The notes below the pieces were generated by a model. The model was not told where the DNA came from and searched no databases. It saw only the letters and a program-made list of their open reading frames with translations. A stretch of 17,360 nt of DNA, from the IMG/VR virus record IMGVR_UViG_2645728010_000005; one strand, written 5' to 3'. The translations under genes and the position numbers were made by a program. This document shows positions 1 to 17,360 of the stretch, piece after piece. The stretch comes from a virus (taxonomy: Duplodnaviria > Heunggongvirae > Uroviricota > Caudoviricetes). Within the stretch, counting starts at the first letter, position 1, and each line of letters starts with the position of its first letter.

Positions 1-273
1 ATGTCAACCGGATTACGTTTCACACTGGAAGTGGACGGCCTGCCGCCGGATGCTTTTGCGGTGGTTTCCTTTCATCTGAACCAGTCACTCTCTTCGCTCT
101 TTTCCCTCGATCTCTCCCTGGTCAGCCAGCAGTTTCTCTCCCTTGAATTTGCGCAGGTGCTGGACAAAATGGCCTACCTGACGATATGGCAGGGCGATGA
201 AGTACAGCGCCGGGTGAAAGGCGTGGTGACCTGGTTTGAACTCGGGGAGAACGACAAAAACCAGATGCTGTAG
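1..273 (+). pseudogene. 5' fragment (~90 codons) of a VgrG-like gene (T6SS spike / Rhs-associated Vgr family)
   Basis: ORF 1..273 translates MSTGLRFTLEVDGLPPDAFAVVSFHLNQSLSS..., which I recognise as the conserved N-terminus of enterobacterial VgrG proteins (normally >600 aa). The frame stops at TAG 271..273, where tail-fibre homology on the opposite strand ends. Confidence 0.45.
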
Positions 274-718
274 CTGCATTCGTTTCTGAGGTTTTCGCCG
301 CGTTCTTCGATGATGCCGCTGCAGTTTCGGATTTCTTTGCCGCCGCTGCGCTCTGAGAGGCGGCTTCGGCGTTGCGTGCCGCTTCTTCCACCATTGCCTC
401 AAAACGACGCAATGCCTCCGGCATGACATCATCTTCCGTCATGGCACCGAGAAAATCATTCAGCGTACCTGGTCTGGAACCTTCATAGACGGTAATGGTT
501 CCGGCATGTGAAGGCGGAAAACCTTCAACCAGCAGGGTGACGCTGTACTGGCCATGCTCAACATCCATGCTGTAACGCCCGGCTTCATCCGGATTTTCAG
601 AGGCCACCGTGTTCACCAGTACCGTGGTGCTGTTACGCTTTGCCTTCAGTTGAATAGTGCAGTTCTGTATTGGTTTTCCCGCACCATCTTTCAGCACACC
701 TGAAATCTGTACTGCCAT
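122..718 (-). pseudogene. stf: Side tail fibre Stf, N-terminal fragment only (~155 codons of Stf-like sequence, 718 down to ~274, then out-of-frame read-through to the stop at 122)
   Basis: ATG at 718..716 with SD GGAGTG upstream. Translation MAVQISGVLKDGAGKPIQNCTIQLKAKRNSTTVLVNTVASENPDEAGRYSMDV... matches the lambda Stf N-terminus as I recall it. Full-length Stf is several hundred aa longer and no tfa follows. Confidence 0.6.
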
Positions 719-733
719 ATTCACTCCACAAAT

Positions 734-758
734 AAAAAAGGCGCCATTTCTGGCGCCC
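734..758 (-). terminator. Intrinsic terminator between J and stf (tJ-like)
   Basis: Hairpin GGCGCC-atttct-GGCGCC (740..757), followed on the minus strand by a T-run (complement of aaaaaa at 734..739). Confidence 0.5.
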
Positions 759-776
759 GTATCTGGGTTATAAAAT

Positions 777-2752
777 TCAGCTAATCATGATGCCTGCAGT
801 GGCTTTCTTCATCACCACAACCAGCAAATCGCTGATACTTGCTGTGGGATACCAGCCATTTACCAGCCATGCCGATACAGAAAATTCCAGTGTCATTACA
901 CCACTGCCTGCAGGCATATCAATAACACCCGTATATATCAGCGTATTATCCAGAGCCGTTCGGTTATAAATTTCAGCACCGTTTTTTCGTACTATCAGAC
1001 GGCATGAGGAGTAGATATCAGTATGATCTTGCTCATGTTTAGCGCCACTGAATGCCACCGCCGGAATAACAATTTGCCGGTCAAACGGCTGATCGTCATA
1101 AACCCTGACGGTAATGGTCCCTGATGGCCACCGCTCCGGTGCACGGGAGTCCCGGGGGAAAGCTTTGCCCACTGTTTTAACGAGATCGCCTTCAATCTGG
1201 TTCGCGGACAGTTTTCCCAGAACCCGGCAGTTCTCGTTAATCGTGACGTTGTTGAGCGTCCCGGAGTTCGCATTCACGTTACCGCTAATATCGGCATTTT
1301 TCGCCGTCAGCCGCCCGTCCGGTGTCAGGGAAAATGCCGGAGGATTACCGCCGCTGGTAATGGTGGGAGCCGTCAGATATTTCAGGAACACTTCGTTCAT
1401 GAATATCTGATCGCCCTGACCAACAAACATCGGCTTTGTGTTGCCATTCGCAGGATTAATCATCGCAATCCTGTCCGCCGCCAGCAGCACCTGACTCTGC
1501 ATACCGTCAGGGGTATTCTCAATACCGGCACCAATACCCGCGATATAAAGGCGTCCGTCCTGCATCTGCTGCAGCTTCACAGCCCACATGCTGTTCAGGT
1601 TATTATTTGTATCAACCTGAACCTTCTGTATCTGCTGGATTGCCGCACTCTGGTCTTCCAGTTTCTTATTGACGGTCTGCGTGATTTCATTACTGACATC
1701 CGTGATGGACGTTCTGATTTCCGCCAGGTCAGGCGCAAGCTGACCGTTATCAATCTGCGTCCACAACTCCTGAGCCAGATGGGTTTTCCCTATCTCTCCT
1801 TTGAAAAAATTCAGATAGCCGGATGCATCATCACTCGGCTGGCCAACAGCCTCCACGAATGCCGATTTGCCAACGGTGTTCACACTGCGGATGTAAAAAT
1901 AATAATCATGGCCCGGTTTGATATTGATACTGGCGGCTATCCAGTACAGCGCCGTGCCAAGATAGCGTGCTGTGGTTTCAACCTGCCTGATATCCGCAAT
2001 CCGCTTTTCCGAGAACCAGAACTCAAACTGTACCGTCGGATCATAAACCGCAAGATGCGGCGTGGCGGTTATCTGAAAATACCCCGGTGTCAGCTCAATC
2101 TGCGACGGCGCTGCCGGTGCGGCAATCCGGAACGATACCGACGCCGGCTCGCCCTGCTGCCCCCACGCATTTACTGCCCGGACTGTCAGCCTGTAGTTCC
2201 CCAGAGCCAGTTGTGTGAAGCGGTAAGTGGTTTCCGTCGTCCGGGCCGTGCTGACCAGTCGCTCACGGCCGTCATCCGCTGCCACGGTCAGGCGAAGCAG
2301 GAAGCTCACGCCCTTCACCACCTTCGGCGTATCCCAGCGGGCCAGCACCTGGTATTCCCCGCTGTCTGCGGTGACTTCTGCGGTCAGGTGCTGCACCGCT
2401 GGCGGCGTGACACCATTTACCGTGCCGCTCTGGTCGCCGTCAAAGTGCGCCCCGTTATCCACGATGGCCTCTTTTTCCGGTACATGCTGCACGGCGGTGA
2501 TGGCATACGTGCCGTCGTCGTTCTCACGGATACTCACGCAGCGGAACAGGCGCTGGCGCAACGTCGGCAGCTTCAGCCCCCATATGCCGGCTTAAACGTT
2601 CCGTCCCAGATACCGCTGTATTGCCGCGTCTGCGGGTTATAGTTCGACGGCACCTGCAGAATGCGCCCGCGAAGATGATAATTACGGCTCACCTGCTGGC
2701 TGCCGAACTGCTCCGAGTCCACCTGCACGCCGACCAGTGCCGTGTTCGGGTA
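777..2752 (-). pseudogene. J: Tail tip / host-specificity protein J remnant: C-terminal ~600 codons (777..~2582, track ORF starts at a TTG) plus a ~55-codon internal J segment in a different frame (~2582..2752)
   Basis: Minus-strand ORF 777..2561 (594 aa) contains [45 protein letters not shown]... and downstream blocks typical of lambda J (fibronectin-like region, [20 protein letters not shown]). A second minus-strand frame over 2583..2752 reads [57 protein letters not shown], which matches a more N-terminal part of J. Lambda J is ~1130 aa. Confidence 0.7.
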
Positions 2753-3257
2753 TCAGTTCATCCAGCGCGGCTGCTTTGTTCATGGCTTTGATGATATCCC
2801 GTTTCAGGAAATCAACATGTCGGTTTTCCAGTTCCGGAAAACGCCGCTGCACCGACAGGGGGATCCCGTCGAGAATACTGGCAATTTCACCTGCGATCCG
2901 CGACAGCACGAAAGTACAGAATGCGGTTTCCACCACTTCAGCGGAGTCTCTGGCATTTTTCAGCTCCTGTGCGTCGGCCTGCGCACGCGTAAGTCGATGG
3001 CGTTCGTACTCAATAGTCCCTGGCTGGAGATCTGTCTCGCTGGCCTGCCGCAGTTCTTCAACTTCCCGGCGCAGCTTTTCGTTCTCAATTTCAGCATCCC
3101 TTTCGGCATACCATCTTATAACGGCGGCAGAGTCATAAAGCACCTCATTACCCTTGCCACCGCCTCGCAGAACGGGCATTCCCTGTTCCTGCCAGTTCTG
3201 AATGGTACGGATACTCGCACCGAAAATGTCAGCCAGCTGCTTTTTGTTGACTTCCAT
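2682..3257 (-). CDS. nohD: Terminase small subunit Nu1 homolog, Nu1-like for ~170 codons then 21 unrelated codons (J-derived sequence read out of frame)
   Basis: ATG at 3257. Translation MEVNKKQLADIFGASIRTIQNWQEQGMPVLRGGGKGNEVLYDSAAV... is near-identical to lambda Nu1 up to ...AALDELIP, then diverges (EHGTGRRAGGLGAVRQPAGEP). Confidence 0.8.
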   Translation of the reverse strand: MEVNKKQLADIFGASIRTIQNWQEQGMPVLRGGGKGNEVLYDSAAVIRWYAERDAEIENEKLRREVEELRQASETDLQPGTIEYERHRLTRAQADAQELKNARDSAEVVETAFCTFVLSRIAGEIASILDGIPLSVQRRFPELENRHVDFLKRDIIKAMNKAAALDELIPEHGTGRRAGGLGAVRQPAGEP

Positions 3258-3460
3258 TGTTCATTCCACGGCCAAAAACAGAGAAAGGAAACGACAGAGG
3301 CCCAAAAGCTCGTTTTCAGCACCTGTCGTTTCCTTTCTTTTCAGGGGGTATTTTAAATAAAAACATTAAGTTACGACGAAGAAGAACGGAAATGCCTTAA
3401 ACCGGAAAATTTTCATAAATAGCGAAAACCCGCGAGGTCGCCGCCCCGTAACCTGTCGGA
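3258..3460 (-). other. cos site: cosN cohesive-end sequence GGGCGGCGACCT (complement of 3435..3446), with the cosB region between it and the Nu1 start
   Basis: The reverse complement of 3258..3446 reads GGGCGGCGACCTCGCGGGTTTTCGCTATTTATGAAAATTTTCCGG... and continues into the Nu1 ATG, as at the lambda left end. The sequence to the right of 3446 reads like the lambda right end. Confidence 0.75.
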
Positions 3461-3645
3461 TCGCCGGAAAGGACCCGCAAAATGATAATAATTATCATCT
3501 ACATGTCACAACGTGCATCTACGCCATCAAACCACGTCAAATAATCAATTATGACGCAGGTATCGTATTAATTGATCTGCATCAACTTAACGTAAAAACA
3601 ACTTCAGACAATACAAATCAGCGACACTGAATACGGGGCAACCTC

Positions 3646-3840
3646 ATGTCAACTAAGAACAGAACCCGCAGAACAACAACCCGCAACATCCGCTTTCCTA
3701 ACCAAATGATTGAACAAATTAACATCGCTCTTGAGCAAAAAGGGTCTGGGAATTTCTCAGCCTGGGTCATTGAAGCCTGCCGTCGGAGACTAACGTCAGA
3801 AAAGAGAGCATATACATCAATCCAGAGTGATGATGAATAA
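3646..3840 (+). CDS. Small conserved lambdoid right-end protein (64 aa), possibly DUF3950 / ribbon-helix-helix-like
   Basis: ATG 3646, 64 codons, MSTKNRTRRTTTRNIRFPNQMIEQINIALEQKGSGNFSAWVIEACRRRL... I recall an almost identical small orf between bor and cos in lambda-like phages; its function is unknown to me. Confidence 0.5.
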   Translation: MSTKNRTRRTTTRNIRFPNQMIEQINIALEQKGSGNFSAWVIEACRRRLTSEKRAYTSIQSDDE

Positions 3841-3937
3841 ACATCCCGGTTTCTTCCACCATCGCACCGGAAAAGCGACTATGAGGGTAACCCTGCGTCT
3901 GTCAGCACAGTAAAACCCGGTGTGCATCGTTTTTGAT

Positions 3938-4002
3938 TATTCCCGCACACTCACGCAGAAGGAATTCCCCGTCGGGCTACGGTCATGGTTAATGCGGGAA
4001 TA
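3938..4002. repeat. 10-bp perfect inverted repeat TATTCCCGCA (3938..3947) / TGCGGGAATA (3993..4002) with a 45-bp spacer, upstream of bor
   Basis: Read directly from the sequence; lies in the non-coding stretch 3841..4200. Confidence 0.6.
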
Positions 4003-4200
4003 CGGCGACGATACAGCGCAGCTAAAAGGGTAATGGACAGAAAGAGCGGTTTATTTCATTCCACAGGATTCTGAGTGCCCCCCCTCCTCCAATAGGCTGA
4101 GCATCCACCTATATAGTTTTAATTTTCATCAATCCATTTAACTATCGTTTAATTGTTGTCACATAGGATTCTGCCGTTTTTAACAATGCAGGATAATAAG

Positions 4201-4494
4201 ATGAAAAAAATGTTGTTTTCTGCCGCTCTGGCAATGCTTATTACAGGATGTGCTCAACAGACGTTTACTGTTGGAAACAAACCGACAGCAGTAACACCAA
4301 AGGAAACCATCACCCATCACTTCTTCGTTTCGGGAATTGGACAGGAGAAAACTGTTGATGCAGCCAAAATTTGTGGCGGCGCAGAAAATGTTGTTAAAAC
4401 AGAAACCCAGCAAACATTCGTAAATGGATTGCTCGGTTTTATTACTTTAGGCATTTATACTCCGCTGGAAGCGCGTGTGTATTGCTCACAATAA
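4201..4494 (+). CDS. bor: Bor lipoprotein (serum-resistance, lysogenic-conversion protein)
   Basis: ATG 4201 with AGGA upstream; 97 aa MKKMLFSAALAMLITGCAQQTFTV... with lipobox LITGC. Near-identical to lambda Bor; opposite strand to the lysis genes, as in lambda. Confidence 0.9.
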   Translation: MKKMLFSAALAMLITGCAQQTFTVGNKPTAVTPKETITHHFFVSGIGQEKTVDAAKICGGAENVVKTETQQTFVNGLLGFITLGIYTPLEARVYCSQ

Positions 4495-4525
4495 TTGCAT
4501 GAGTTGCCCATCGATATGGGCAGCT

Positions 4526-4987
4526 CTATCTGCACTGCTCATTAATATACTTCTGGGTTCCTTCCAGTTGTTTTTGCATAGTGATCAGCCTCTCTCTGAG
4601 GGTGAAATAATCCCGTTCAGCGGTGTCTGCCAGTCGGGGGGAGGCTGCATTATCCACGCCGGAGGCGGTGGTGGCTTCACGCACTGACTGACAGACTGCT
4701 TTGATGTGCAACCGACGACGACCAGCGGCAACATCATCACGCAGAGCATCATTTTCAGCTTTCGCATTAGCTAACTCCTTCGTGTATTTTTCATCCAGTG
4801 CAGCAACATCACGCTGGCGCATCTGCATGTCAGTAATTGCCGCGTTCGCCAGCTTCAGTTCTCTGGCATTTTTGTCGCGCTGGGCTTTGTAGGTAATGGC
4901 GTTATCACGGTAATGATTAACAGCCCATGACAGGCAGACGATGATGCAGATAACCAGAGCGGAGATAATCGCGGTTACTCTGTTCAT
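4526..4987 (-). CDS. rzpD: Spanin, inner-membrane subunit Rz (i-spanin)
   Basis: [55 protein letters not shown]..., 153 aa with an N-terminal TM helix. The ATG overlaps the endolysin stop (ATGA). Confidence 0.85.
4585..4767 (-). CDS. rzoD: Spanin, outer-membrane lipoprotein subunit Rz1 (o-spanin), embedded in the +1 frame of Rz
   Basis: 60 aa [24 protein letters not shown]... with lipobox VVGC and a proline-rich core ([15 protein letters not shown]); lies entirely inside Rz. Confidence 0.8.
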
Positions 4988-5481
4988 TGCTGACCCCACA
5001 AACAGATTTCACGCTCAATCTCACGACGAGTCATGAGACCTTTCCATTGCTTACCGCCAGCATATGTCCAGCGACGTAGCTGATCACATGCGCCTTTGAT
5101 ATCGCCCTGGTTTATTTTGCGAAGAAGCGTCGATGTTCTGAAATTGCCAGCGCCCACGTTGTAAACGAACGAGTAAAGAGCGCCGCGCGTTGTTTCCGGT
5201 ATATCAACTTTTATGTACGGGTTAATTTGTCTGGCGACCGTGGCAAGGTCTTTATTCAGGAGGGCTTTGCATTCTGCTTTGGTATACGTTTTACCGAGCA
5301 TGATGTCTTTTCCTGTATGCCCGTGACATACAGTCCATACACCAACAATATCTTTGTATGGTATGTAGCTGACACCTTCCAGACCATCGTTACCACTTGG
5401 GCCAGTGATTAACACTGATGCTATAGCAATTGCTCCGCCACCAATAGCAGCAGCAACGGCTTTTCGTAATGATGGAGGCAT
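4984..5481 (-). CDS. rrrD: SAR endolysin (phage 21 R-type lysozyme with N-terminal signal-anchor-release domain)
   Basis: 165 aa; the N-terminus [27 protein letters not shown] is a weakly hydrophobic Gly/Ala-rich SAR segment, followed by a lysozyme-like body. Matches DLP12 RrrD / phage 21 R as I recall them. Confidence 0.9.
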
Positions 5482-5696
5482 TATTCACCTCTCGCAGCCT
5501 TGCGCTTATCTTCTTTAATCTTGAAATAAAGGTTTGTCAGGTACGTCAGCAGGCCAAATACCAGGCTACCCAGCACACCTATTGCTGCCCACTGTGAGGG
5601 CGTGACTTTATCGAGCAGCTGTAAAAACCAGTAACCGGCACTACCTGCTGAGGTGCCATAGGCGACACCCGTTGTTAACTTATCCATGGATTTCAT
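5481..5696 (-). CDS. essD: Class II holin / pinholin (phage 21 S-type) with dual-start motif M-K-S-M
   Basis: ATG 5696 with SD GAGGTG; 71 aa [71 protein letters not shown] with two TM segments. The track ORF start at 5741 is a TTG extension. Confidence 0.85.
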
Positions 5697-5911
5697 AACC
5701 CCACCTCGCAGACAAAGCGGGTGTAAATTGAGGGAATACAACGTATCGCAAAAAAGCAGAAACGTAACAGACTCGGAGTCAGTGAATAACTCAGGTATTG
5801 AGTTATCAGCTAATATCGAGACTCAAAAAATGGAAAAACCAGCTCGACGGCGGGTTTAAGCTGTGTGACGAAGTAACCACTCTTAACAGCATAACCAATT
5901 TTTTACGTACG

Positions 5912-6048
5912 TAAACCACTGAATGATATTTATGAGAATGCTACCGAGTGTTCAAAACACCACCACAAATATATAAGAAAACCTCAACAAATAACCAATA
6001 AATAATTTCCGGCGTTATTTTTAGTTGATTTAAATTAAACCACTGAAT
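5912..6048. repeat. 13-bp direct repeat TAAACCACTGAAT at 5912..5924 and 6036..6048 in the AT-rich porin upstream region
   Basis: Read directly from the sequence; both copies lie in the non-coding region 5742..6284. Confidence 0.6.
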
Positions 6049-6918
6049 TATAGAACCCCCATAAATAACAGCCATTAATATAAATTAGCTAATAGGTTTA
6101 TTTTTGTTCAAATAAGAGCCATAAATAGGTTTCGATAGAAAAAGTTCAGATAAAAATAGAGATCTACTTCACAAATTAAATGAGAAACTAAAACTTACAT
6201 CTTGAAATAATCACATTGATTAGATGAATATTTATCGCGCAGTGACATCATTTTTTAATAATAGTTCAAAAAAAAGGGCTCACGATGAAAAAATTAACAG
6301 TGGCAATTTCTGCTGTAGCTGCATCAGTACTGATGGCGATGTCTGCTCAGGCAGCTGAAATTTATAATAAAGACAGTAACAAGCTGGATCTGTACGGGAA
6401 AGTTAATGCCAAGCACTACTTTTCCTCTAACGATGCAGATGATGGTGATACTACTTATGCCCGTCTTGGCTTCAAAGGTGAAACCCAAATCAACGATCAA
6501 CTGACTGGTTTCGGTCAGTGGGAATATGAATTCAAAGGCAACCGCGCTGAATCTCAAGGTTCCTCCAAAGACAAAACCCGTCTTGCATTTGCAGGCCTGA
6601 AATTCGGTGACTACGGCTCAATCGATTACGGCCGTAACTACGGTGTAGCATACGACATCGGTGCGTGGACTGACGTTCTGCCAGAATTCGGTGGCGATAC
6701 CTGGACCCAAACAGATGTGTTCATGACTGGTCGCACCACTGGTGTTGCAACCTATCGTAACAACGACTTCTTTGGTCTGGTCGATGGCCTGAACTTTGCT
6801 GCTCAGTATCAGGGTAAAAATGACCGCACTGACGTAACTGAAGCCAATGGTGATGGTTTCGGTGGTGATGCTGCCAACTTACTGATTTAGTGTATGATGG
6901 TGTTTTTGAGGTGCTCCA

Positions 6919-7194
6919 GTGGCTTCTGTTTCTATCAGCTGTCCCTCCTGTTCAGCTACTGACGGGGTGGTGCGTAACGGCAAAAGCACCGCCGGACATC
7001 AGCGCTATCTCTGCTCTCACTGCCGTAAAACATGGCAACTGCAGTTCACTTACACCGCTTCTCAACCCGGTACGCACCAGAAAATCATTGATATGGCCAT
7101 GAATGGCGTTGGATGCCGGGCAACTGCCCGCATTATGGGCGTTGGCCTCAACACGATTTTACGTCACTTAAAAAACTCAGGCCGCAGTCGGTAA
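6919..7194 (+). CDS. insA: IS1 InsA (transposition inhibitor / N-terminal part of the transposase)
   Basis: 91 aa [43 protein letters not shown]... with a zinc-finger CxxC...CxxC; canonical InsA. Confidence 0.9.
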
Positions 7195-7616
7195 CCTCGC
7201 GCATACAGCCGGGCAGTGACGTCATCGTCTGCGCGGAAATGGACGAACAGTGGGGCTATGTCGGGGCTAAATCGCGCCAGCGCTGGCTGTTTTACGCGTA
7301 TGACAGGCTCCGGAAGACGGTTGTTGCGCACGTATTCGGTGAACGCACTATGGCGACGCTGGGGCGTCTTATGAGCCTGCTGTCACCCTTTGACGTGGTG
7401 ATATGGATGACGGATGGCTGGCCGCTGTATGAATCCCGCCTGAAGGGAAAGCTGCACGTAATCAGCAAGCGATATACGCAGCGAATTGAGCGGCATAACC
7501 TGAATCTGAGGCAGCACCTGGCACGGCTGGGACGGAAGTCGCTGTCGTTCTCAAAATCGGTGGAGCTGCATGACAAAGTCATCGGGCATTATCTGAACAT
7601 AAAACACTATCAATAA
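7113..7616 (+). CDS. insB: IS1 InsB reading frame (expressed as the InsAB' transposase by -1 frameshift)
   Basis: 167 aa ...[28 protein letters not shown]...; canonical InsB, overlapping insA in the -1 frame. Confidence 0.85.
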
Positions 7617-8153
7617 GTTGGAGTCATTACCGGTTTCGGTTTCTCCACTACTTATGAGTATGAAGGATTCGGCGTGGGTGCAACCTATGCTAAATCAGAT
7701 CGCACTGACGGTCAGGTCGCCTATGGTAAGAGCAAATTCAATGCCTCCGGCAAAAATGCGGAAGTATGGGCTGCAGGCCTGAAATATGATGCGAACAATA
7801 TCTATCTGGCTACCACATATTCTGAAACTCAGAATATGACCGTTTTTGGTAATAACCATATTGCAAACAAAGCACAAAACTTTGAAGCAGTAGCACAATA
7901 TCAGTTTGACTTCGGTCTGCGACCATCTGTTGCTTACCTTCAGTCAAAAGGTAAAGACCTTGGTGTTCATGGTGACCGAGACTTAGTCAAGTATGTCGAT
8001 GTCGGTGCTACTTACTACTTTAATAAAAACATGTCCACTTTTGTTGATTACAAAATCAACTTAATTGACGATAGTAAGTTTACCAAAACAGCTGGTATTG
8101 ATACCGACGACATCGTCGCTGTAGGTCTGGTGTATCAGTTCTAATCTGATTAC

Positions 8154-8194
8154 GAAAAAGATATGTTGCGGGAGGCTTTGCCTCCCCAACATAT
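8154..8194 (-). terminator. Intrinsic terminator on the minus strand (candidate tR' of the late leader); its hairpin also sits 17 bp after the porin stop on the plus strand
   Basis: Stem ATATGTTG-(C)-GGGAGGC / GCCTCCC-CAACATAT (8161..8194, loop ttt), followed on the minus strand by CTTTTT (complement of 8155..8159). Confidence 0.5.
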
Positions 8195-8282
8195 AAGTGG
8201 CTCCCTCAAGCCACTTCCTTTAGAAGCACAACCTTGCTTCTAACTATATAAACCTTCTGTTATATATTACCCTTTATTTTTG

Positions 8283-8316
8283 GGGGCGTCTCAACGCCCC
8301 ATTTTTAATAATTTTT
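8283..8316 (+). terminator. Plus-strand intrinsic terminator
   Basis: GGGGCGT-ctca-ACGCCCC hairpin (8283..8300) followed by ATTTTTAATAATTTTT. Confidence 0.4.
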
Positions 8317-8333
8317 AGTAAACAATTGGCATA

Positions 8334-8717
8334 TTAATTAGAGTTATTAACAACGATATCCATCTCTAACCGGATATCTAATGCCATTAACATCCCTTCA
8401 ATTATGCCCTCAGCCTTCTGTAACCTTTTCCCGATATAACCATCAGAGCAGCAATGCTTACCTGCCAGTGACATGAATGTCATACCGACTACATAATAAT
8501 CTACTAATAAATCATGCAAATCGCTGTTGTTCTTTTTCAGACGGGCCATGCACCCGCAAATGATCATCGCGTCATCGTCACAACATTGTGGGCGAGATTT
8601 TACTTTTGAAGGAATTAATCCCTTAAAACCGGCGGCAATGGACGACCAGGTCACATCTTCATGATTATTAGCCGCCCACGCTCCCCAACGCTCAAGAACC
8701 ATCTGAATATCACGCAT
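8334..8717 (-). CDS. quuD: Late-gene antiterminator Q (short, DLP12 QuuD-like)
   Basis: ATG 8717; 127 aa [24 protein letters not shown]... with a Cys-rich zinc-binding region ([16 protein letters not shown]). The track ORF has a 5-codon upstream extension. Confidence 0.85.
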
Positions 8718-8802
8718 CAACTTACTCCACAAAACTCAGACCAGAACGCCAATTACAAGCAAAAATCAACAAAACAGTATTAGTTGATTGTTATCTCTGA
8801 CT

Positions 8803-8925
8803 TCATACTCCTGCTCCTGTCAGTGTTTTGGCGTAATTCTTCAGTATTCGGTAATCGGTCAAAACAGAACCGGGGAAACGATATAAGCGCAGGCGCATCC
8901 AGCGGTGGCGAAGAAGTTCTGCCAT
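8803..8925 (-). CDS. Small basic ORF between rusA and Q (ylcG-like), 40 aa
   Basis: ATG 8925, MAELLRHRWMRLRLYRFPGSVLTDYRILKNYAKTLTGAGV, stop TGA 8803..8805. Position corresponds to ylcG in DLP12; coding status is uncertain. Confidence 0.35.
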   Translation of the reverse strand: MAELLRHRWMRLRLYRFPGSVLTDYRILKNYAKTLTGAGV

Positions 8926-8939
8926 ATAAAACTCAAACA

Positions 8940-9302
8940 TCATTCATCTCCCTGTTCAGTGATGGTCAGTTCCAGCTTTCCACCTTTGACAACCGGCATC
9001 TTCACAACGCGGTAATCAACGACCTGAGCATCATCCAGCCAGAAACCTGCTTTGGTGAGTGCGTCAAAAGCGGCCTTTTGTAGATTATCCAGGTCACGGC
9101 GACGGCGATCCGGCATGTGACACTCAATGCGGATTTTCACAGGCATAGCCAGGCCGATATCCAGCATTGCGTTTTTAATGATTCGGGCGACGTTTTCGCG
9201 GTATGCCTGCCCCTCTGCGCTGATGTGCGTGCGCCCGCGATTATGGCGGTAATAGCGATTATTGCTCGGCGGCCAGGGTAATGTGATATTGTAGGTATTC
9301 AC
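8940..9302 (-). CDS. rusA: RusA Holliday-junction resolvase
   Basis: 120 aa (GTG start) [50 protein letters not shown]...; matches E. coli RusA. Confidence 0.9.
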
Positions 9303-9589
9303 GCCTTAATTACCCCCTCTTTCAGCCAGATAACCTGCGTTCTCGCCATACCTTCCAGCGCGCATTCTTTTGCATATCCAGCGTCAACAAAATGCGTGCG
9401 ACGGTCGATCTCGTCGTGACAGGCAGAACATGCAATGGTGGCAATCAGGTCTGGCGGTTTGATACCGGTACCGCACAATCCAGCCAGCCGGATATGTGCC
9501 AGTACAGACGTTTCAGGATTGCCATTACATACGCCAGGGATTCTTACCTGGCATTCCCGACCACGCGCTGCTTTTCTCAAATCAGCCAT
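9299..9589 (-). CDS. ybcO: YbcO-family protein (DUF1364, putative nuclease of the nin region)
   Basis: ATG 9589 with SD AAGGAGG; 96 aa [42 protein letters not shown]... The track ORF has a 13-codon upstream extension. Confidence 0.7.
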
Positions 9590-9752
9590 GATTCCTCCTT
9601 GCTGCCAGTCGCAACCATTTTTTATCAACCAGGCTGGCGGTATATCCGAGCAGTGTTGGTATTTCGGATGGTTTCAGCTCAGGCTTACGCTTACGACGAT
9701 TTGGTACTTTGTAGATGTGTCCGTTCATGACACGAATAAGCGGTGTAGCCAT
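9582..9752 (-). CDS. ninE: NinE-like small protein (56 aa)
   Basis: Below the track threshold. ATG 9752..9750 with SD AGGAGG, overlapping the ybcN stop (TAATG); [56 protein letters not shown]; stop overlaps the ybcO start. Confidence 0.6.
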   Translation of the reverse strand: MATPLIRVMNGHIYKVPNRRKRKPELKPSEIPTLLGYTASLVDKKWLRLAARRNHG

Positions 9753-10207
9753 TACGCCTCCTGCTTATCACGCAGCAGCTGGAACTCGCAGCTCTGCGGA
9801 ATAGTCAGGTGGCAGCCAATATTCATCGCCCAGGCTTCAACCTTACACAGGAAGACATACATCTCTCCGGTATCAAGGTCGGAGGTATGGCGTAACGACT
9901 GGATAGTGGTGATATCACCGGTTACGACATCAACCAGGTCTTTGGTTTCATAACCGAGATATGTGTGTTTGAGAGCATCTTTTACCCAAGCTGGAGTGGC
10001 GAACGTTTTACCCCTGCTGATGAGGTATTCACTGATTTCGCTGTACCACATGTGGCTGAGTGCATTCTGGGAAAGACTGCGTTTCTCACGCCACGGTTTA
10101 AGCACCATGCGAAAGCATTTGCCCTCCTCCAGATAAGGCTGGATCTGCCGACCGATAGCGGTGAAGTTGCCGCGATGTAATTTGATGCCGTCTTGTGAGA
10201 GGTTCAC
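9752..10207 (-). CDS. ybcN: NinB-like recombination protein (DUF1367, YbcN)
   Basis: 151 aa, GTG start preceded by GGAGGTG; contains ...[23 protein letters not shown]..., resembling the NinB family. Confidence 0.75.
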
Positions 10208-10305
10208 GCTTCACCTCCGCAGAGGTCAAACGCTAGATGCAAAGAATTGCAGGTGCATTTCTGCATCTGTGAAGGGAGAAGAGAGTTTGGATTGTATGTG
10301 CGCAT
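10204..10305 (-). CDS. Small ORF (33 aa) between ybcM and ybcN, ylcH-like
   Basis: ATG 10305, [33 protein letters not shown]; its stop overlaps the ybcN start. Coding status is uncertain. Confidence 0.3.
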
Positions 10306-10421
10306 AAACGTCCCCGTTTAGCGCAGAAGTCACCGGAGTTGTTCAGGCTCCGGTGACATAATTATGCCGTGTTGATTTCCCAAAATCAAAATCGATAGAA
10401 TTGCTCCTTCTTAAAACACTT

Positions 10422-11219
10422 TTACTCTCTGGAAGCTTTTCTTATCTCTCTTGGTGTTATATTAAAACGATTATGAAATCTTTCAGTAAAACGAGAAGGA
10501 CACTTATAACCATTTTCTCTGGCAATCTCGCTTATAGGTTTTACCGTCGTTTGTATAGCAGACAACGCATTATTTAACCTCACATCGTCCAGTATACTTT
10601 GGAAACTTACCCCCTCGCTTGCTAGACGGCGATGTAATGTAGAAACAGAAATGTAGAGATATCGAGCAACCTTGTTTGCTGTCCATTTTGTGCCGGGTTC
10701 GGATAGCAGCAGGTTATAACAACGACTTATCAATGATTGTTTACTATATGATAAAAGTAAATGATTAACATGATTCACTCCTAACGAAAGTAGAACGCCC
10801 ATTGCTAAGTGCTCCTGAATTTTAGTTGAGAAGCCTCGGGAAACAGATGTTTTTAGTTGCTCCCAACAATATATTAACTCAGGATTCTGAGGTAAAAAGA
10901 AACTTGTTTTGTTACGTATTTGATCAGTTACCGTATAAAGTTTTTGGAAACTCTCAATTAAATCAATGGGTAAGTAAAGCATTTCTGCAAGATAAAGCCC
11001 TGCTTCAGGATAATTCTCAATATAAAATTCATAACCACAAGGAAATAATATTATTTGATTATTATCAACAGTTAAAGTATGCGTCTCCCAATTGATAACT
11101 TTCTTTCCCTGACGGATACGACACAAAGCTGGCATAAGAGGCTTAACCCTATGAATCTCATGATGTTTATGCATCCGTATTTCTTCGATCTTTAAGTTAG
11201 TCTTACCTCTTGCCAGCAT
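10422..11219 (-). CDS. ybcM: AraC/XylS-family transcriptional regulator
   Basis: 265 aa; C-terminal dual-HTH AraC signature (...[42 protein letters not shown]...[21 protein letters not shown]). Confidence 0.85.
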
Positions 11220-11228
11220 ACTCTCACC

Positions 11229-11780
11229 CTACTTTATCTCATAAACTGGTGTTATCTCAGCGGTTGCGATTTTATTAGCATTAAGCATATAACCAACTAA
11301 CGCTCCGCTGGAGTTAGAATCTACAGGAATCTTTTCAGTTTTTAGAGCCCATACTTTAAACTGGTAATGATGTGGTTTATCTCCTTTAGGAGGACATGCG
11401 CCACCAAACCCAGCATAGCCAAAATCATTTCGGCCTTGAACAGCACCAGTCGGCAGTTTTGTTCCATCACGTCTCCCTGCATCAACGGGCAAATATGTTA
11501 CTGTTGCTGGAATATTAACAACAGTCCAATGCCACCAACCACTGCCTGTAGGTGCATCTGGATCATATACAGTTACGGCAAAGCTTTTGGTACCTTCAGG
11601 AACACCAGACCAGGTTAATGAGGGCGATGTATTACCACCTTCACACCCAAATCCAGAAAAGACATGAGACGTTGTAAGTTGCTCTCCTGTTTTTATTTCA
11701 TTACTAGTGACCTGAAATGCTGCAGCCTGCGCAGAAAATGTTATGAATGCCAATACAGTTGAAACGATAAGTGTTTTCAT
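11229..11780 (-). CDS. ybcL: Periplasmic PEBP/RKIP-family protein (YbhB/YbcL, UPF0098)
   Basis: 183 aa with signal peptide MKTLIVSTVLAFITFSAQAAA and PEBP motifs (DPDAP...GWWHW...HHYQFKVWAL). Confidence 0.85.
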   Translation of the reverse strand: MKTLIVSTVLAFITFSAQAAAFQVTSNEIKTGEQLTTSHVFSGFGCEGGNTSPSLTWSGVPEGTKSFAVTVYDPDAPTGSGWWHWTVVNIPATVTYLPVDAGRRDGTKLPTGAVQGRNDFGYAGFGGACPPKGDKPHHYQFKVWALKTEKIPVDSNSSGALVGYMLNANKIATAEITPVYEIK

Positions 11781-11996
11781 AAAAACCTCTTTGTTATGAC
11801 CTATCGTTATTTTATTTGATATTCCTTTATCTCATTATGCATAAAGGCGCAATGTTCATGCAAAAGCAATCACAATTGTACCCCCAACCCAATTATTTGC
11901 CACAATATACACAAAGCACATTGATACTATCTAAAAACTCTGCTTTATTATTAGTAATACCTACGAAAGTCGGTGTTATTTTTTAACCTACCATTC

Positions 11997-12046
11997 AAAA
12001 TACGTGACATACACCATTTTGCTCATAATAATTTGTCACGTATTTT
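11997..12046. repeat. 13-bp perfect inverted repeat AAAATACGTGACA (11997..12009) / TGTCACGTATTTT (12034..12046) with a 24-bp spacer
   Basis: Read directly from the sequence; lies in the ybcK-ybcL intergenic region about 200 bp below the ybcK stop. Confidence 0.65.
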
Positions 12047-12244
12047 CAGTATTTGAATCTGCGACCAAGAGTTCTCACCTAACAAATGATTAAGATTGTA
12101 TAGCTCATTTACTACCCCAATACAGCCGTACAAAACTCGCTTGTGGGAGCAAACAAAGTAATTACCCATTAAGTTTCGTTAAAGATAATTAATTCTGTCT
12201 TGCACTTTATCACCATAGCATAACTTAAAATCCGAGATCATTAT

Positions 12245-13771
12245 TTAGAAATAAATCTCACCATCAACCATATATTTGAGAGCACTTATCGCCTGCTGGG
12301 CGGATATTACTTTCATTAAAGGATAGTGTTTAAAAACAATGCCATTCATAAAATAGATATCACAGGTTTTATTATCCGTATTAATTATGATTTTTTCGAA
12401 TGTTTTATAGGCAAGTGTACGGCATAACTCTCGTCCATTTTTACTGGTTAAGTCAATAGCATAAAAATCACTGAATGAATTTACACCTTTACTCTTCAAA
12501 GTTTTCAATGATACCGAAGCCCTTCGTAATTCCTTATCTAATAGTCTTATTTTCTCTGCTATAGCGGTAACTTCAGGCGCGACAGACAATGCAACGATTA
12601 AATTATTAATTTTCATCTGAAGCTCAATAATTTTTAACTCTAAAGTTTCATTAGCATCTTTCTTGTTTTCAACTGGTTGAATTTTGCTACAATTAAAAAG
12701 CAATTCATTAATGATATTATAATCAACCAAATCTCTTTTTATTGATGGCCTGTCACATCGATGTAATCTTCTCATCGGACAAACATAATAGCCATGCAAA
12801 CTTCCAGATACCGCATGAACAATCATGGTATTACCACAAGCCTCACACTTCATAACTGTTCGAAGTAGATTTATTAGCATAGGATTCTTGCTACTATTGC
12901 TAATACCAAAAGGTGCCAACCGAATTTCCTGTACAGCGTAAAACAAATCATCTGATATGACTCTGGGATAATAGCCAGCGATTTCACTTATCCCTTTCCC
13001 TCTTGCACGATATGAAGGTACGCATATACCTATCAGAGCTTTATTCGCTAATAATTTTTCAATTACAGAAGGTCCCCATGCACTTTCTTTTCCTGAGAAA
13101 TTCTTTACAGCATGATCATTTAAATACTTGGCTATTGCATTCAATGAGCGCCTTTCCATCCTGAGTTTAAAAATTAGCTCAATAGTTTTCACCCTGTCGG
13201 GGTCTGGAACAAAAGCCGTTCTTTTGTCATCTAAGGAGAGCCATCTCGGACAAGACGCCGTCATAATCGTACCTGATTCCAGTGCATCCTGCCGTTTTTT
13301 CTTCCATGATAATTTAACCCGACTTGACTTTATCTCGCTTTCTTCATTTGCCCTTTGTGCTATAAGTATGGCTTTTATTAATGAATATGGCTCATTCAAA
13401 GAGTCAATATTATAGACTGTATTGTCGCAAAGAGTTATAACATCAATACCGTGATTCAAAATCAATTTCAGACGTTCAATCGCTTCACCGACTTTTTCTC
13501 TTGAAAGTCTGTCCAGACTTTCAACTAACAATGTAGTTCCTGGCAATATATAACCATGCTCTATAGCATCTAAAAATTCCGAAAAAGCTCCTGATTGTGC
13601 ATGCTTTCCTTTGAATGCACTTAATCCTAAATCTTCATATGTTATGGTATCAAGATAATAATCACTATTTACCTTTAACCATTCAGCAATAAGTCTTCTC
13701 TGTCGGTTTAATGAGTCGCCAGACATCTGACCTGGTGATGAAAATCGCATATATGCTATGGCTTTTTTCAT
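12245..13771 (-). CDS. ybcK: Large serine recombinase (resolvase-like catalytic domain, recombinase domain, Cys-rich zinc-ribbon region)
   Basis: 508 aa; N-terminus MKKAIAYMRFSSPGQ carries the catalytic-serine motif of serine recombinases; Cys cluster CEACGNTMIVH...YYVCPMRRLHRCDRP; coiled-coil-like C-terminal region. Confidence 0.85.
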   Translation of the reverse strand: MKKAIAYMRFSSPGQMSGDSLNRQRRLIAEWLKVNSDYYLDTITYEDLGLSAFKGKHAQSGAFSEFLDAIEHGYILPGTTLLVESLDRLSREKVGEAIERLKLILNHGIDVITLCDNTVYNIDSLNEPYSLIKAILIAQRANEESEIKSSRVKLSWKKKRQDALESGTIMTASCPRWLSLDDKRTAFVPDPDRVKTIELIFKLRMERRSLNAIAKYLNDHAVKNFSGKESAWGPSVIEKLLANKALIGICVPSYRARGKGISEIAGYYPRVISDDLFYAVQEIRLAPFGISNSSKNPMLINLLRTVMKCEACGNTMIVHAVSGSLHGYYVCPMRRLHRCDRPSIKRDLVDYNIINELLFNCSKIQPVENKKDANETLELKIIELQMKINNLIVALSVAPEVTAIAEKIRLLDKELRRASVSLKTLKSKGVNSFSDFYAIDLTSKNGRELCRTLAYKTFEKIIINTDNKTCDIYFMNGIVFKHYPLMKVISAQQAISALKYMVDGEIYF

Positions 13772-13950
13772 GGTGACACCTGCTAACGTATGCTTTTATA
13801 AACCTTAGTGGTGGGATATAATTTTTGTTTAATTTTTATTTAAAAAGACAATTAAGGTCACATTATCTTGAATATACAACAATAATCGTATTGCAATTTT
13901 CTTACGCCATAATCTTGAAAGCACAAAAGAATACATAAAAAATAAAGACA

Positions 13951-13996
13951 TTAACAAAAAGCATAAAACGAGGCTCATATAAATATAAGAGCCTCC
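13951..13996 (-). terminator. Putative intrinsic terminator downstream of emrE
   Basis: Stem GAGGCTC/GAGCCTC (13970..13976 / 13989..13995) with a 12-nt AT loop, followed on the minus strand by a T-rich run (GTTTTATGCTTTTTG). Confidence 0.35.
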
Positions 13997-14025
13997 ATAT
14001 TTTAGTCGTTTAGAAACAAATTATT

Positions 14026-14358
14026 TTAATGTGGTGTGCTTCGTGACAATAAATTAATAACCAACACACCGGCACAAATCAACATCATGCCTATAATGGC
14101 TGGCAGGTCCAGCCGTTGGCCGAAAAATCCCCATAACAGTAAGCTAATCAGGACAATACCGACTCCTGACCAGATACCATAAGCAATCCCTGTAGGAATA
14201 TAAGCCAGCGTCTGAGCTAATAACCAGAATGATGCACAATAACAAATAATTGTACCAACAGATGGCCATAACCGTGTAAAACCTTCTGAAAACTTCATTA
14301 AGGTTGTACCAATGACCTCTGCAAGTATTGCACCACCAAGATAAATATAAGGGTTCAT
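14026..14358 (-). CDS. emrE: EmrE small multidrug resistance (SMR) efflux transporter
   Basis: ATG 14358; 110 aa MNPYIYLGGAILAEVIGTTLMKFSEGFTRLWPSVGTIICYCASFWLLAQTLAYIPTGIAYGIWSGVGIVLISLL..., four TM helices with the conserved membrane Glu14. The track ORF has an 18-codon upstream extension. Confidence 0.95.
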   Translation of the reverse strand: MNPYIYLGGAILAEVIGTTLMKFSEGFTRLWPSVGTIICYCASFWLLAQTLAYIPTGIAYGIWSGVGIVLISLLLWGFFGQRLDLPAIIGMMLICAGVLVINLLSRSTPH

Positions 14359-14697
14359 AGCATATTCTTTCCTGTTCAAACTGGAGAGAATTGTACTACA
14401 GTTTGAACTCAACTCACCTGTTTCATCATTGTGTTCCCATTGATGTTCTTTTATATACCCTCAGTACCCGTTTCATCGCGGCACTCTGGCGACACTCCTT
14501 AAAAATCAGATTCGTGCTCACCTTTCCTTCCCGTTCTTCTCTGGTAGCGAACCGGTAATACACCGTTCGCCAGACCTTACCATCAACGACCAGGATTCCT
14601 GCCCGCGCCATTTTAGCCGCAGCCTGATTTATGCTGGTTACGGTTGCACCTGTTGGCCCGCATGTTCTGGTACAAGTTGGTAACCAACCAGTAAGCA

Positions 14698-15063
14698 ATG
14701 GGATATGCCTCTGGTTATGTCTGGTTGAATCCACCATACAGCAATATTTCCCCTTTTGTGAAAAAGGCAGCCACTGAAAACAAATTCAGCAGTGTGGGAT
14801 GTGTAATGTTATTACCTGCTGACACATCTGTCGGATGGTTTCATGAAGCGATACAAACCGCCAGTGAGGTCAGATTCATCACGGCAGGACGACTGGCATT
14901 TATTAACCCACTCACCGGGAAACACGTCAGTGGAAATAATAAAGGCTCGATGCTCATTATCTGGCACCCATACCCCCGTACACACTGCCACTTTACGACC
15001 GTTGATCGTGGAGAGTTGATGGCGTTCGGCTCAAGGATTCTTGCCCGTCGGGAGGCTGCATGA
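14698..15063 (+). pseudogene. Phage Dam-type N6-adenine DNA methyltransferase, probably a 5'-truncated remnant
   Basis: 121 aa MGYASGYVWLNPPYSNISPFVKKAATENKFSSVGCVMLLPADTSVGWFHEA...; the NPPY catalytic motif sits at residues 11..14 and an in-frame TAA lies 4 nt upstream of the ATG. In the phage Dam family as I recall it, about 60 aa precede this motif. Confidence 0.5.
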
Positions 15064-15139
15064 CAACCACGGAATGCATTTTTCTGGCAGCGGGCTTCAT
15101 ATTCTGTGTGCTTATGCTTGCCGACATGGGACTTGTTCA

Positions 15140-15355
15140 ATGACACCTCAGCAGGAAAACGCCCTTCGCAGCATAGCCCGTCAGGCTAATTCTGAAATCA
15201 AAAAAGCCAGACAGCAGTTTCCGGATAAAAACGTCGATGACATTTGCCGTAGCGTACTGAAGAAGCACCGCGAAACGGTAACGCTGATGGGATTCACACC
15301 GACTCATTTAAGCCTGGCGATCGGCATGTTAAACGGCGTCTTTAAGGAGCGATGA
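15140..15355 (+). CDS. Hypothetical small early-left phage protein (71 aa from ATG 15140; the track ORF starts at 15041)
   Basis: Open frame MTPQQENALRSIARQANSEIKKARQQFPDKNVDDICRSVLKKHRETVTLMGFTPTHLSLAIGMLNGVFKER; start site uncertain; no family recognised. Confidence 0.3.
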   Translation: MTPQQENALRSIARQANSEIKKARQQFPDKNVDDICRSVLKKHRETVTLMGFTPTHLSLAIGMLNGVFKER

Positions 15356-15453
15356 ACATGAAAAGCAAAATCATCAGGGAGCTACAGGCTCCTTTTTTAT
15401 TATTCGCATTCACCCTCAAGCGTATTAACCAACAATTCAGGGATTAATGGAAG

Positions 15454-15672
15454 ATGGCAGACATCATTGATTCAGCATCAGAAATCGAAGAATTACAGCG
15501 CAATACAGCAATAAAAATGCGTCGTCTGAACCACCAGGTTATATCTGCCACTCATTGTTGTGAGTGTGGCGATCCCATAGATGAACGAAGACGCCTGGCC
15601 GTTCAGGGTTGTCGGACTTGTGCAAGCTGCCAGGAGGAGATCGAACTTAAGAACAAACAATGGGGATTGTGA
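15454..15672 (+). CDS. TraR/DksA-family C4 zinc-finger protein (phage-encoded)
   Basis: 72 aa with two CxxC pairs (HCCECGDPID...GCRTCASCQ) at TraR-like spacing. Confidence 0.6.
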   Translation: MADIIDSASEIEELQRNTAIKMRRLNHQVISATHCCECGDPIDERRRLAVQGCRTCASCQEEIELKNKQWGL

Positions 15673-15719
15673 TGGCCTCAAAGCAGCAAATTTCAACATC
15701 GTCCAACTGAGGTGTAAAA

Positions 15720-15998
15720 ATGTTCAGAATCATTTTGCCTAACACCTGGTACGTCGACCACCACGGCACTCCCTGCAAAATCCTGCGTTCTACCCACAAC
15801 AAAGTTCACTACATCCGAAAAGGCAGAACATGTATCGCCAGCATGTTCCGCTTTAATCATGACTTTGAACCTGTGAATAAAGCTGATGCAGATCGGATAG
15901 CAGAAGAGATCGAAACGGCAGAACACATTAAGAAGTTACGTGACATGCGTTCAAAAAGCAGAGGTAACCATGGAATCATACAGCCTCACACTCGATGA
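15720..15998 (+). CDS. Hypothetical early-left phage protein (92 aa)
   Basis: ATG 15720 with SD GAGGTG; MFRIILPNTWYVDHHGTPCKILRSTHNKVHYIRKGRTCIASMFRFNHDFEPVNKADADRIAEEIETAEHIKKLRD...; no family recognised with confidence. Confidence 0.4.
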   Translation: MFRIILPNTWYVDHHGTPCKILRSTHNKVHYIRKGRTCIASMFRFNHDFEPVNKADADRIAEEIETAEHIKKLRDMRSKSRGNHGIIQPHTR

Positions 15999-16341
15999 GG
16001 CCTGTCAGTTTCTTAAGATATCCAGACCAACCGCCACCAACTGGATACGAACAGGCCGCCTACAGGCAACACGTAAAGATCCAACCAAGCCAAAATCTCC
16101 TTACCTCACAACACGGCAAGCCTGCATTGCGGCGCTTCAGTCTCCGCTGCATACTGTCCAGGTGAGCGCGGGTGATGGCATAACAGAGGAAAGAAAATGT
16201 CACTCTTCCGCAGAAATGAAATATGGTATGCCTCGTATTCGCTCCCGGGCGGGAAACGAATTAAGGAATCTCTTGGCACAAAGGACAAGCGGCAAGCTCA
16301 GGAGTTGCACGACAAGCGAAAAGCAGAACTCTGGCGAGTAG
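15970..16341 (+). CDS. xis: Excisionase / AlpA-like HTH DNA-binding protein (extent uncertain; overlaps the integrase start by ~145 nt)
   Basis: ATG 15970 with SD GAGGT; N-terminus [36 protein letters not shown] is a typical AlpA/Xis-type HTH; the C-terminal ~45 codons overlap int in another frame. Confidence 0.5.
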
Positions 16342-17360
16342 AAAAGCTAGGGGATTTACCTGATGTCACTTTTGAAGAGGCCTGCCTAAGATGGCTTGAG
16401 GAAAAAGCTGATAAAAAATCTCTCGATTCAGATAAAAGCCGGATTGAGTTCTGGCTTGAACATTTTGAGGGTATAAGGCTTAAAGATATCTCGGAGGCAA
16501 AGATTTACTCTGCTGTAAGCAGAATGCATAACAGAAAGACGAAAGAAATATGGAAACAGAAAGTTCAGGCCGCCATCAGGAAAGGTAAAGAACTGCCTGT
16601 TTATGAACCAAAGCCAGTACCAACTCAGACAAAGGCAAAGCATCTTGCCATGATAAAGGCCATTCTCCGTGCTGCAGAACGCGACTGGAAGTGGCTGGAA
16701 AAAGCGCCTGTCATCAAGATACCAGCGGTCAGAAACAAGCGAGTCAGATGGCTGGAAAAGGAGGAAGCAAAACGCCTTATTGATGAGTGCCCCGAACCAC
16801 TGAAATCTGTCGTCAAGTTTGCGCTGGCAACTGGTCTGAGAAAGTCGAACATCATAAATCTGGAATGGCAACAAATCGACATGCAGCGACGAGTTGCCTG
16901 GGTGAATCCAGAAGAGAGCAAATCAAACCGCGCCATTGGTGTGGCGCTGAACGATACCGCCTGTAAAGTGTTGCGTGATCAAATAGGCAAGCATCACAAA
17001 TGGGTGTTTGTACATACCAAGGCGGCTAAGCGAGCAGATGGAACATCAACGCCTGCGGTCAGGAAGATGCGCATCGACAGCAAGACATCATGGCTATCAG
17101 CTTGTCGTCGTGCAGGAATTGAAGATTTCCGTTTCCATGACCTCAGACACACCTGGGCAAGCTGGCTGATTCAGTCAGGCGTCCCATTATCAGTGCTTCA
17201 GGAAATGGGCGGATGGGAGTCCATAGAAATGGTTCGTAGGTATGCTCACCTTGCGCCTAATCATTTGACAGAGCATGCGAGGAAAATAGACGACATTTTT
17301 GGTGATAATGTCCCAAATATGTCCCACTCTGGAATTATGGAGGATATAAAGAAGGCGTAA
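16197..17360 (+). CDS. intD: Tyrosine-type phage integrase (DLP12 IntD-like)
   Basis: 387 aa [46 protein letters not shown]...; C-terminal catalytic box ...[42 protein letters not shown] (conserved H-x-x-R and Tyr). Stop codon is the last 3 nt of the window. Confidence 0.95.

Follow-up and report, generated by a model that had tools for sequence, protein, structure and literature searches.

Two deletions border a truncated phage dam gene in the cryptic prophage DLP12 of Escherichia coli BL21

Main

Does an open reading frame (ORF) of 121 codons that carries the catalytic motif of a phage adenine methyltransferase close to its start encode a complete enzyme, a shorter protein with a role of its own or the leftover of a longer gene? 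The question is raised by a stretch of 17,360 nucleotides in an IMG/VR virus record (IMGVR_UViG_2645728010_000005; the whole stretch is hereafter called the window), in which an ORF on the plus strand at 14698..15063 encodes 121 aa with the N-terminal sequence MGYASGYVWLNPPYS. A first-pass annotation, made from the letters alone, had read this ORF as a Dam-type methyltransferase gene without its N-terminal region, probably a dead remnant, and had suspected a second deletion scar directly upstream. Here we conclude, with high confidence, that this ORF is what remains, without function, of the 3′ part of dam in the prophage DLP12, cut by a deletion of about 6.08 kb, and that a later deletion of 274 bp in BL21 lies upstream of it.

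Origin of the window

Compared with the genome of E. coli BL21(DE3) (NC_012971.2), the window is 100% identical to positions 533908..551267 over all 17,360 nt, as the reverse complement. From this identity, and from a gene order that agrees with the annotated locus beside tRNA-Arg and fimZ, we identify its source as the defective lambdoid prophage DLP12 at the argU site. The right end of the window is the intD stop codon; tRNA-Arg (argU) lies 15 nt further on, followed by fimZ. In window order the genes are:

Start of the window: tail and terminase remnants, then lysis genes, then the nmpC porin gene interrupted by IS1
Next, minus strand: quuD, rusA, ninE, ybcN, ybcM, ybcL, ybcK, emrE
Final part: ren′, dam′, a hypothetical gene, a TraR/DksA zinc-finger gene, DUF4222, a xis-like HTH gene, intD

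Inside the nmpC-type porin gene (6285..8144), IS1A, with its transposase CDS at 6919..7616, is annotated by RefSeq in BL21(DE3), whose sequence is identical here. The xis-like HTH_17 ORF near the other end (15970..16341, plus strand) aligns in one frame, with 81.9% identity, with the intact protein of another prophage over its entire 116 aa; RefSeq enters merely a 66-nt pseudogene fragment with a ‘missing C-terminus’, probably an annotation artefact due to overlap with the long intD start at 16197.

The ORF lacks the N-terminal third of Dam

Against the Pfam Dam family (PF05869), the ORF matches far above chance, given its E value of 4.9e-35 and its score of 121.1 bits (gathering cut-off, 28.1). 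The (N/D)PPY catalytic motif IV of that family is present as NPPY at residues 11-14 of the ORF, in columns that are invariant in a family alignment of 31 sequences. The aligned part of the ORF, residues 5-113, begins at profile position 60 and runs to position 168 of 169, short of the whole domain. A similar picture emerged with the NCBIfam equivalog model TIGR01712 (phage_N6A_met), in which ORF residues 7-111 cover profile positions 63-165 of 165 and the score of 96.8 bits stays below the curated cut-off of 97.05. A full-length relative of 185 aa, by contrast, spans PF05869 positions 1-168 and TIGR01712 positions 3-165, the latter with 164 bits. The first-pass annotation had allowed that the ORF might cover the full domain, the N terminus of the family being naturally short. 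This difference in profile coverage speaks against such a reading, as do the 120 closest database relatives, which are mostly 180-200 aa long, and we give it a vanishingly small probability. Among phage records that match the 185-aa Dam, 1,734 of 2,063 cover at least 80% of its 185 aa.

The 185-aa relative places the truncation precisely. Its intact allele, WP_000129285.1, is the closest complete member of the family; other prophages of E. coli carry it, and a 185-aa protein 100% identical to it is encoded by Escherichia phage PhiR30_1. On this protein the ORF corresponds to residues 65-185, its ATG being the internal Met65. When the 185-aa relative was compared by tblastn with window 14000-15200, residues 64-185 alone aligned (98.4% identity, E = 2e-90), and the next best match had an E value of 0.74; residues 1-62 found no match in any of the six frames of the whole window (best E = 0.29). 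At the DNA level, homology between the window and intact dam starts at 14693, the second base of codon 63, and what has been lost is dam codons 1-62 together with the first base of codon 63. The remnant is listed as follows, over the same interval that RefSeq annotates as ECD_RS02555 (‘DNA N-6-adenine-methyltransferase, incomplete, missing N-terminus’):

14695..15063, plus strand: dam′ pseudogene, with codons 64-185 and the stop codon of the gene for a phage N6-adenine methyltransferase of 185 aa

The status of dam′ as a pseudogene is thus already known and flagged in RefSeq; in the literature on DLP12, BL21 and REL606, on PF05869 and on phage Dam, we found no paper that discusses the remnant. 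The first-pass annotation fared well on these points: translation of 14698..15063 confirms NPPY at residues 11..14, profile coverage, tblastn and the RefSeq entry all agree with its missing N-terminal region, and its statement that the upstream frames hold no such sequence stands, given that tblastn recovered nothing of residues 1-62.

The lost part is conserved. Judged on the 31-sequence alignment, T9, P10, R14, W17, T19, P20, F24 and L27 are near-invariant in the lost third, as are A29-F31, F33, D36-A39, N43, L45, C46, I50, L57 and W61. The N-terminal segment that is presumed to form the AdoMet-binding part of the family (W17-x-T19-P20 and F31-x-F33-x-L-D36-A-A-A) occurs neither in the ORF nor in any frame of the window.

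A deletion of about 6.08 kb created the dam′ junction

The breakpoint was located by comparing the window and E. coli C with the intact dam of two prophages and with the P gene of E. coli RX24. The argU/fimZ site is occupied in this last strain too, by a prophage whose int-proximal arm is 99% identical and whose early region is undeleted, its dam being intact:

RX24 early region, first part: P, O-like replication protein, YdaT, cro-like regulator, cI-like S24 repressor
RX24 early region, continued: kil, gam, bet, exo, DUF1317, dam (185 aa), hypothetical, TraR, DUF4222, HTH, intD

On the RX24 locus the breakpoints fall at 6533/6534 and 12617/12618, and the lost interval, 6534..12617, amounts to 6,084 bp with one ambiguous A. 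Judged against RX24, the deletion cost the prophage the 5′ part of P, the genes O, ydaT, cro, cI, kil, gam, bet, exo and DUF1317, and the 5′ end of dam. In the window, the resulting P′::dam′ breakpoint falls at 14692/14693; a single nt (A) of microhomology is shared there, and the junction reads CCAGT-A-AGCAATG. P contributes a T and dam codon 63 its AA, which together make a TAA; the stop is therefore a product of the deletion itself:

14692..14694, plus strand: TAA stop, formed by T from the P side and AA of dam codon 63 (GAA)

The in-frame stop upstream of the ORF, which the first-pass annotation had described as immediately adjacent, thus exists, but a GCA codon (14695-14697) stands between the TAA and the ATG.

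The P′::dam′ junction is common to 67 of 5,426 complete E. coli genomes, including those of B strains (REL606 and ATCC 11303), C, ATCC 8739 and field isolates. Could the gene instead only seem truncated, owing to a frameshift, to an error in sequencing or assembly, or to a split that leaves its N-terminal half nearby, in another frame or on the other strand? We regard this as exceedingly improbable: residues 1-62 leave no trace in the window, homology to intact dam ends abruptly at 14693 and gives way to P-gene sequence, and the identical junction recurs in the 67 independently assembled complete genomes.

The mechanism that we infer is a single deletion of about 6.08 kb by illegitimate recombination in an ancestor of the group that comprises B, C and ATCC 8739. 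It would have brought the middle of P, a gene of the rightward operon on the minus strand of the window, head-to-head against codon 63 of dam, which belongs to the leftward operon on the plus strand, and the same event would have taken away the pL promoter region for dam. With the junction-made TAA in place, the longest open frame now starts from the internal Met65, ten residues before NPPY.

A second, BL21-specific deletion lies upstream

The 280 bp upstream of dam′ had been suspected to be a scar of a further deletion, and the sequence supports this with two deletions, at the P′::dam′ breakpoint and at 14653-14654. A scar the region is, but it is occupied by the remains of ren and P, which are genes of the rightward operon on the other strand:

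14426..14653, minus strand: ren′ pseudogene, with codons 26-100 and the stop codon of a gene for a lambda Ren-like protein (RefSeq ECD_RS02560, ‘missing N-terminus’)
14653..14654, no strand: junction of the 274-bp deletion, with TT microhomology; ren codons 1-25 and most of P′ are gone
14655..14692, minus strand: P scrap, 38 nt, all that is left of the 246-nt P′ remnant present in other B/C-type strains

Against phrog_142 (Ren-like exclusion protein), ren′ aligns with profile positions 36-113 of 116 (E = 6.5e-30) and so falls short of full length. A 103-aa ORF that runs on the minus strand from 14426 to 14737 (14426..14737) was considered as a real gene and rejected; composed of antisense dam′, the out-of-frame P scrap and ren codons 26-100, it reads as a chance chimera.

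The second junction becomes apparent from comparison with E. coli C. Window 11300..14654 is 100% identical to positions 1..3355 of the E. coli C locus, and window 14653..17360 is 100% identical to positions 3628..6335; the window therefore lacks 274 bp that are present in E. coli C. In that strain the order is emrE, a complete ren of 100 aa, a C-terminal P remnant of 81 codons and, head-to-head with it, dam′. At 3426..3671 of the E. coli C locus, RefSeq records this P remnant as a pseudogene of replication protein P without its N terminus; PF06992 and phrog_109 both match it.

A 44-nt probe over the junction at 14653-14654 (window 14633..14676) was found in 32 of the 5,426 complete E. coli genomes. 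Each of the 32 derives from BL21, and they include BL21, BL21(DE3), C41, C43, BLR, T7 Express/NEB Express, Rosetta, BL21-AI and BAP1. The remaining 35 genomes with the P′::dam′ junction, including REL606, B, C and ATCC 8739, retain the 274 bp. The 274-bp deletion is thus specific to the BL21 lineage and an event of the laboratory lineage. As to the order and mechanism of both deletions, we infer that this one came later, on the way to BL21, and that it would have used the 2-bp microhomology, with loss of the ren 5′ end and of most of what then remained of P.

The remnant is predicted to be inactive

In methyltransferases as a general rule, motifs X and I-III bind AdoMet (PMC3299994). We use Drozdz et al. 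2012 (PMC3299994) for this rule alone, as the proteins described there belong to a different Dam-like subfamily, with FxGxG and DPPY motifs, whose closest solved homologues are EcoDam, DpnM and T4 Dam. In PF05869, the order of the family places a conserved LDAAA-type segment N-terminal to NPPY. Family conservation, taken together with general knowledge of methyltransferases, suggests that the lost N-terminal third carries AdoMet-binding motifs X and I-III, which come ahead of motif IV in enzymes with this order of motifs. Because the missing third would carry these motifs, the dam′ remnant would be unable to methylate DNA.

Structural comparison was of limited reach. Among solved structures, none was detectably related by sequence to the full-length Dam (best match, CutA, E = 0.28). 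An AlphaFold2 model of the full-length relative, built on the 31-sequence alignment, was mediocre, with a pLDDT of 66.6 and values below 50 at residues 35-70. Foldseek comparison of the full-length model with the PDB returned weak matches (TM 0.3-0.4), all to class-I amino-methyltransferases (TrmM-like, DrdV, MmeI, HsdM, METTL4 and EcoDam), which is enough to name the class of fold, not to map the AdoMet contacts. In some of the matched enzymes (TrmM-like, HsdM and MmeI), motif I comes before motif IV.

Expression signals were sought around the ORF as well. No sigma-70-like promoter was found on the plus strand in 14300..15200, nor any Shine-Dalgarno-like sequence in the 12 nt before the ATG (AACCAGTAAGCA), and the pL promoter region expected to drive dam falls inside the 6.08-kb deletion. 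These features of the sequence suggest that dam′ is not expressed.

Might the 121-aa ORF nevertheless be a functional short protein made from Met65, for example a C-terminal fragment that binds DNA or that interferes with the Dam of an incoming phage? The frame of dam′ holds no internal stop and no frameshift, and it differs from the intact allele at 5 of 369 nt, three of the changes being synonymous and the other two E138G and P140H. An intact frame of 121 codons with only two amino-acid changes could be taken to favour a functional protein, as could the retention of NPPY and of all C-terminal invariant residues; yet a recent deletion suffices to account for the low divergence, with no need of selection. 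Given that dam′ has barely decayed, the decay of its sequence says nothing for or against loss of function. A few database relatives of 118-140 aa also exist, but they are few among the 120 listed, and mostly labelled ‘partial’ where their source names them. Against a functional product stand also the score below the NCBIfam equivalog cut-off, the want of a Shine-Dalgarno-like or promoter-like site before the ATG and the deletion of the native promoter region. We therefore consider a functional short protein very unlikely. A specific version, in which low-level translation from Met65 would yield a fragment that, devoid of the AdoMet site but still in possession of NPPY and the C-terminal half, has a residual role such as binding DNA or poisoning the related Dam of superinfecting lambdoid phages, is a long shot; if true, it would explain why no disabling mutation appears in the 67 genomes. 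The preferred reading remains a dead remnant, as first proposed, with a conserved third of the protein, the native upstream genes and the promoter region all absent.

Neighbouring genes and use as a marker

Downstream of dam′, the surviving part of the leftward early operon (15060..15355) keeps the order that it has in intact prophages:

15060..15143, plus strand: unannotated 27-aa hydrophobic ORF, MTTTECIFLAAGFIFCVLMLADMGLVQ, with ATGA overlaps with the dam′ stop and the start of the next gene
15140..15355, plus strand: phrog_303 protein (E = 4.7e-36)

Neither NCBIfam nor PHROGs holds a family that matches the 27-aa ORF. Another prophage has at least the 5′ part of this ORF as well, downstream of its intact dam.

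As a case of gene loss, dam′ is ordinary prophage decay in a well-studied cryptic prophage and carries little biological weight. Its surroundings have a practical use, in that the 44-nt junction 14633..14676 is a potential marker for BL21 DNA, for example in metagenome contamination. One IMG/VR metagenome contig (IMGVR_UViG_3300009034_004096) is, over its positions 1..9687, 100% identical to window 7674..17360, the BL21-only junction included, which suggests that laboratory-strain DNA is present in that data set.

Comparison with intact dam loci and with DLP12 of other strains

Relative to the intact Dam of WP_000129285.1 and PhiR30_1, dam′ has lost neither NPPY (motif IV) nor any invariant residue of the C-terminal part. 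Unlike that protein, it lacks residues 1-63, including the W-x-T-P and F-x-LDAAA segments. Downstream, dam′ shares with intact dam loci the phrog_303 hypothetical gene and those for the TraR/DksA zinc-finger protein, DUF4222, the xis-like HTH protein and the integrase; upstream, unlike them, it has neither its neighbours exo and DUF1317 nor the promoter region. The DLP12 prophages of E. coli B REL606, C and ATCC 8739 carry a P′::dam′ junction and a dam′ remnant identical to those of BL21. These three have the full 100-aa ren and the 81-codon P′, from which BL21 derivatives have lost 274 bp.

The DLP12 of E. coli K-12 (intD … exoD, IS3, peaD, renD, emrE, ybcK …) occupies the same argU/fimZ insertion site as that of BL21, and intD, emrE, ybcK-ybcN, rusA, quuD and the lysis genes are 99-100% identical between the two. 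In it, too, the immunity and replication region is gone, P being cut short and fused head-to-head to a gene of the leftward early operon. We compared the junctions directly, using K-12 MG1655 locus 6687..7302 and window 14655..14700: in K-12, 312 nt of P′ are fused to the last 306 nt of exo, whereas in B, C and BL21, 246 nt of P′ meet codon 63 of dam. The K-12 and B-type deletions may have been independent or sequential; one conceivable intermediate, in which P′::exo′ would be followed by DUF1317 and an intact dam, was represented in none of the 5,426 genomes at a coverage of at least 80% of the chimeric probe. A second deletion in K-12 extends from DUF1317 through the xis-like gene, dam included, up to just before intD. 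Accordingly, dam is wholly missing from the K-12 prophage, in which IS3 also interrupts ren. For B/C-type strains, the comparison gives the exact breakpoints of the 6.08-kb deletion by which DLP12 became defective, and they show that the K-12 and B-type DLP12 junctions differ.
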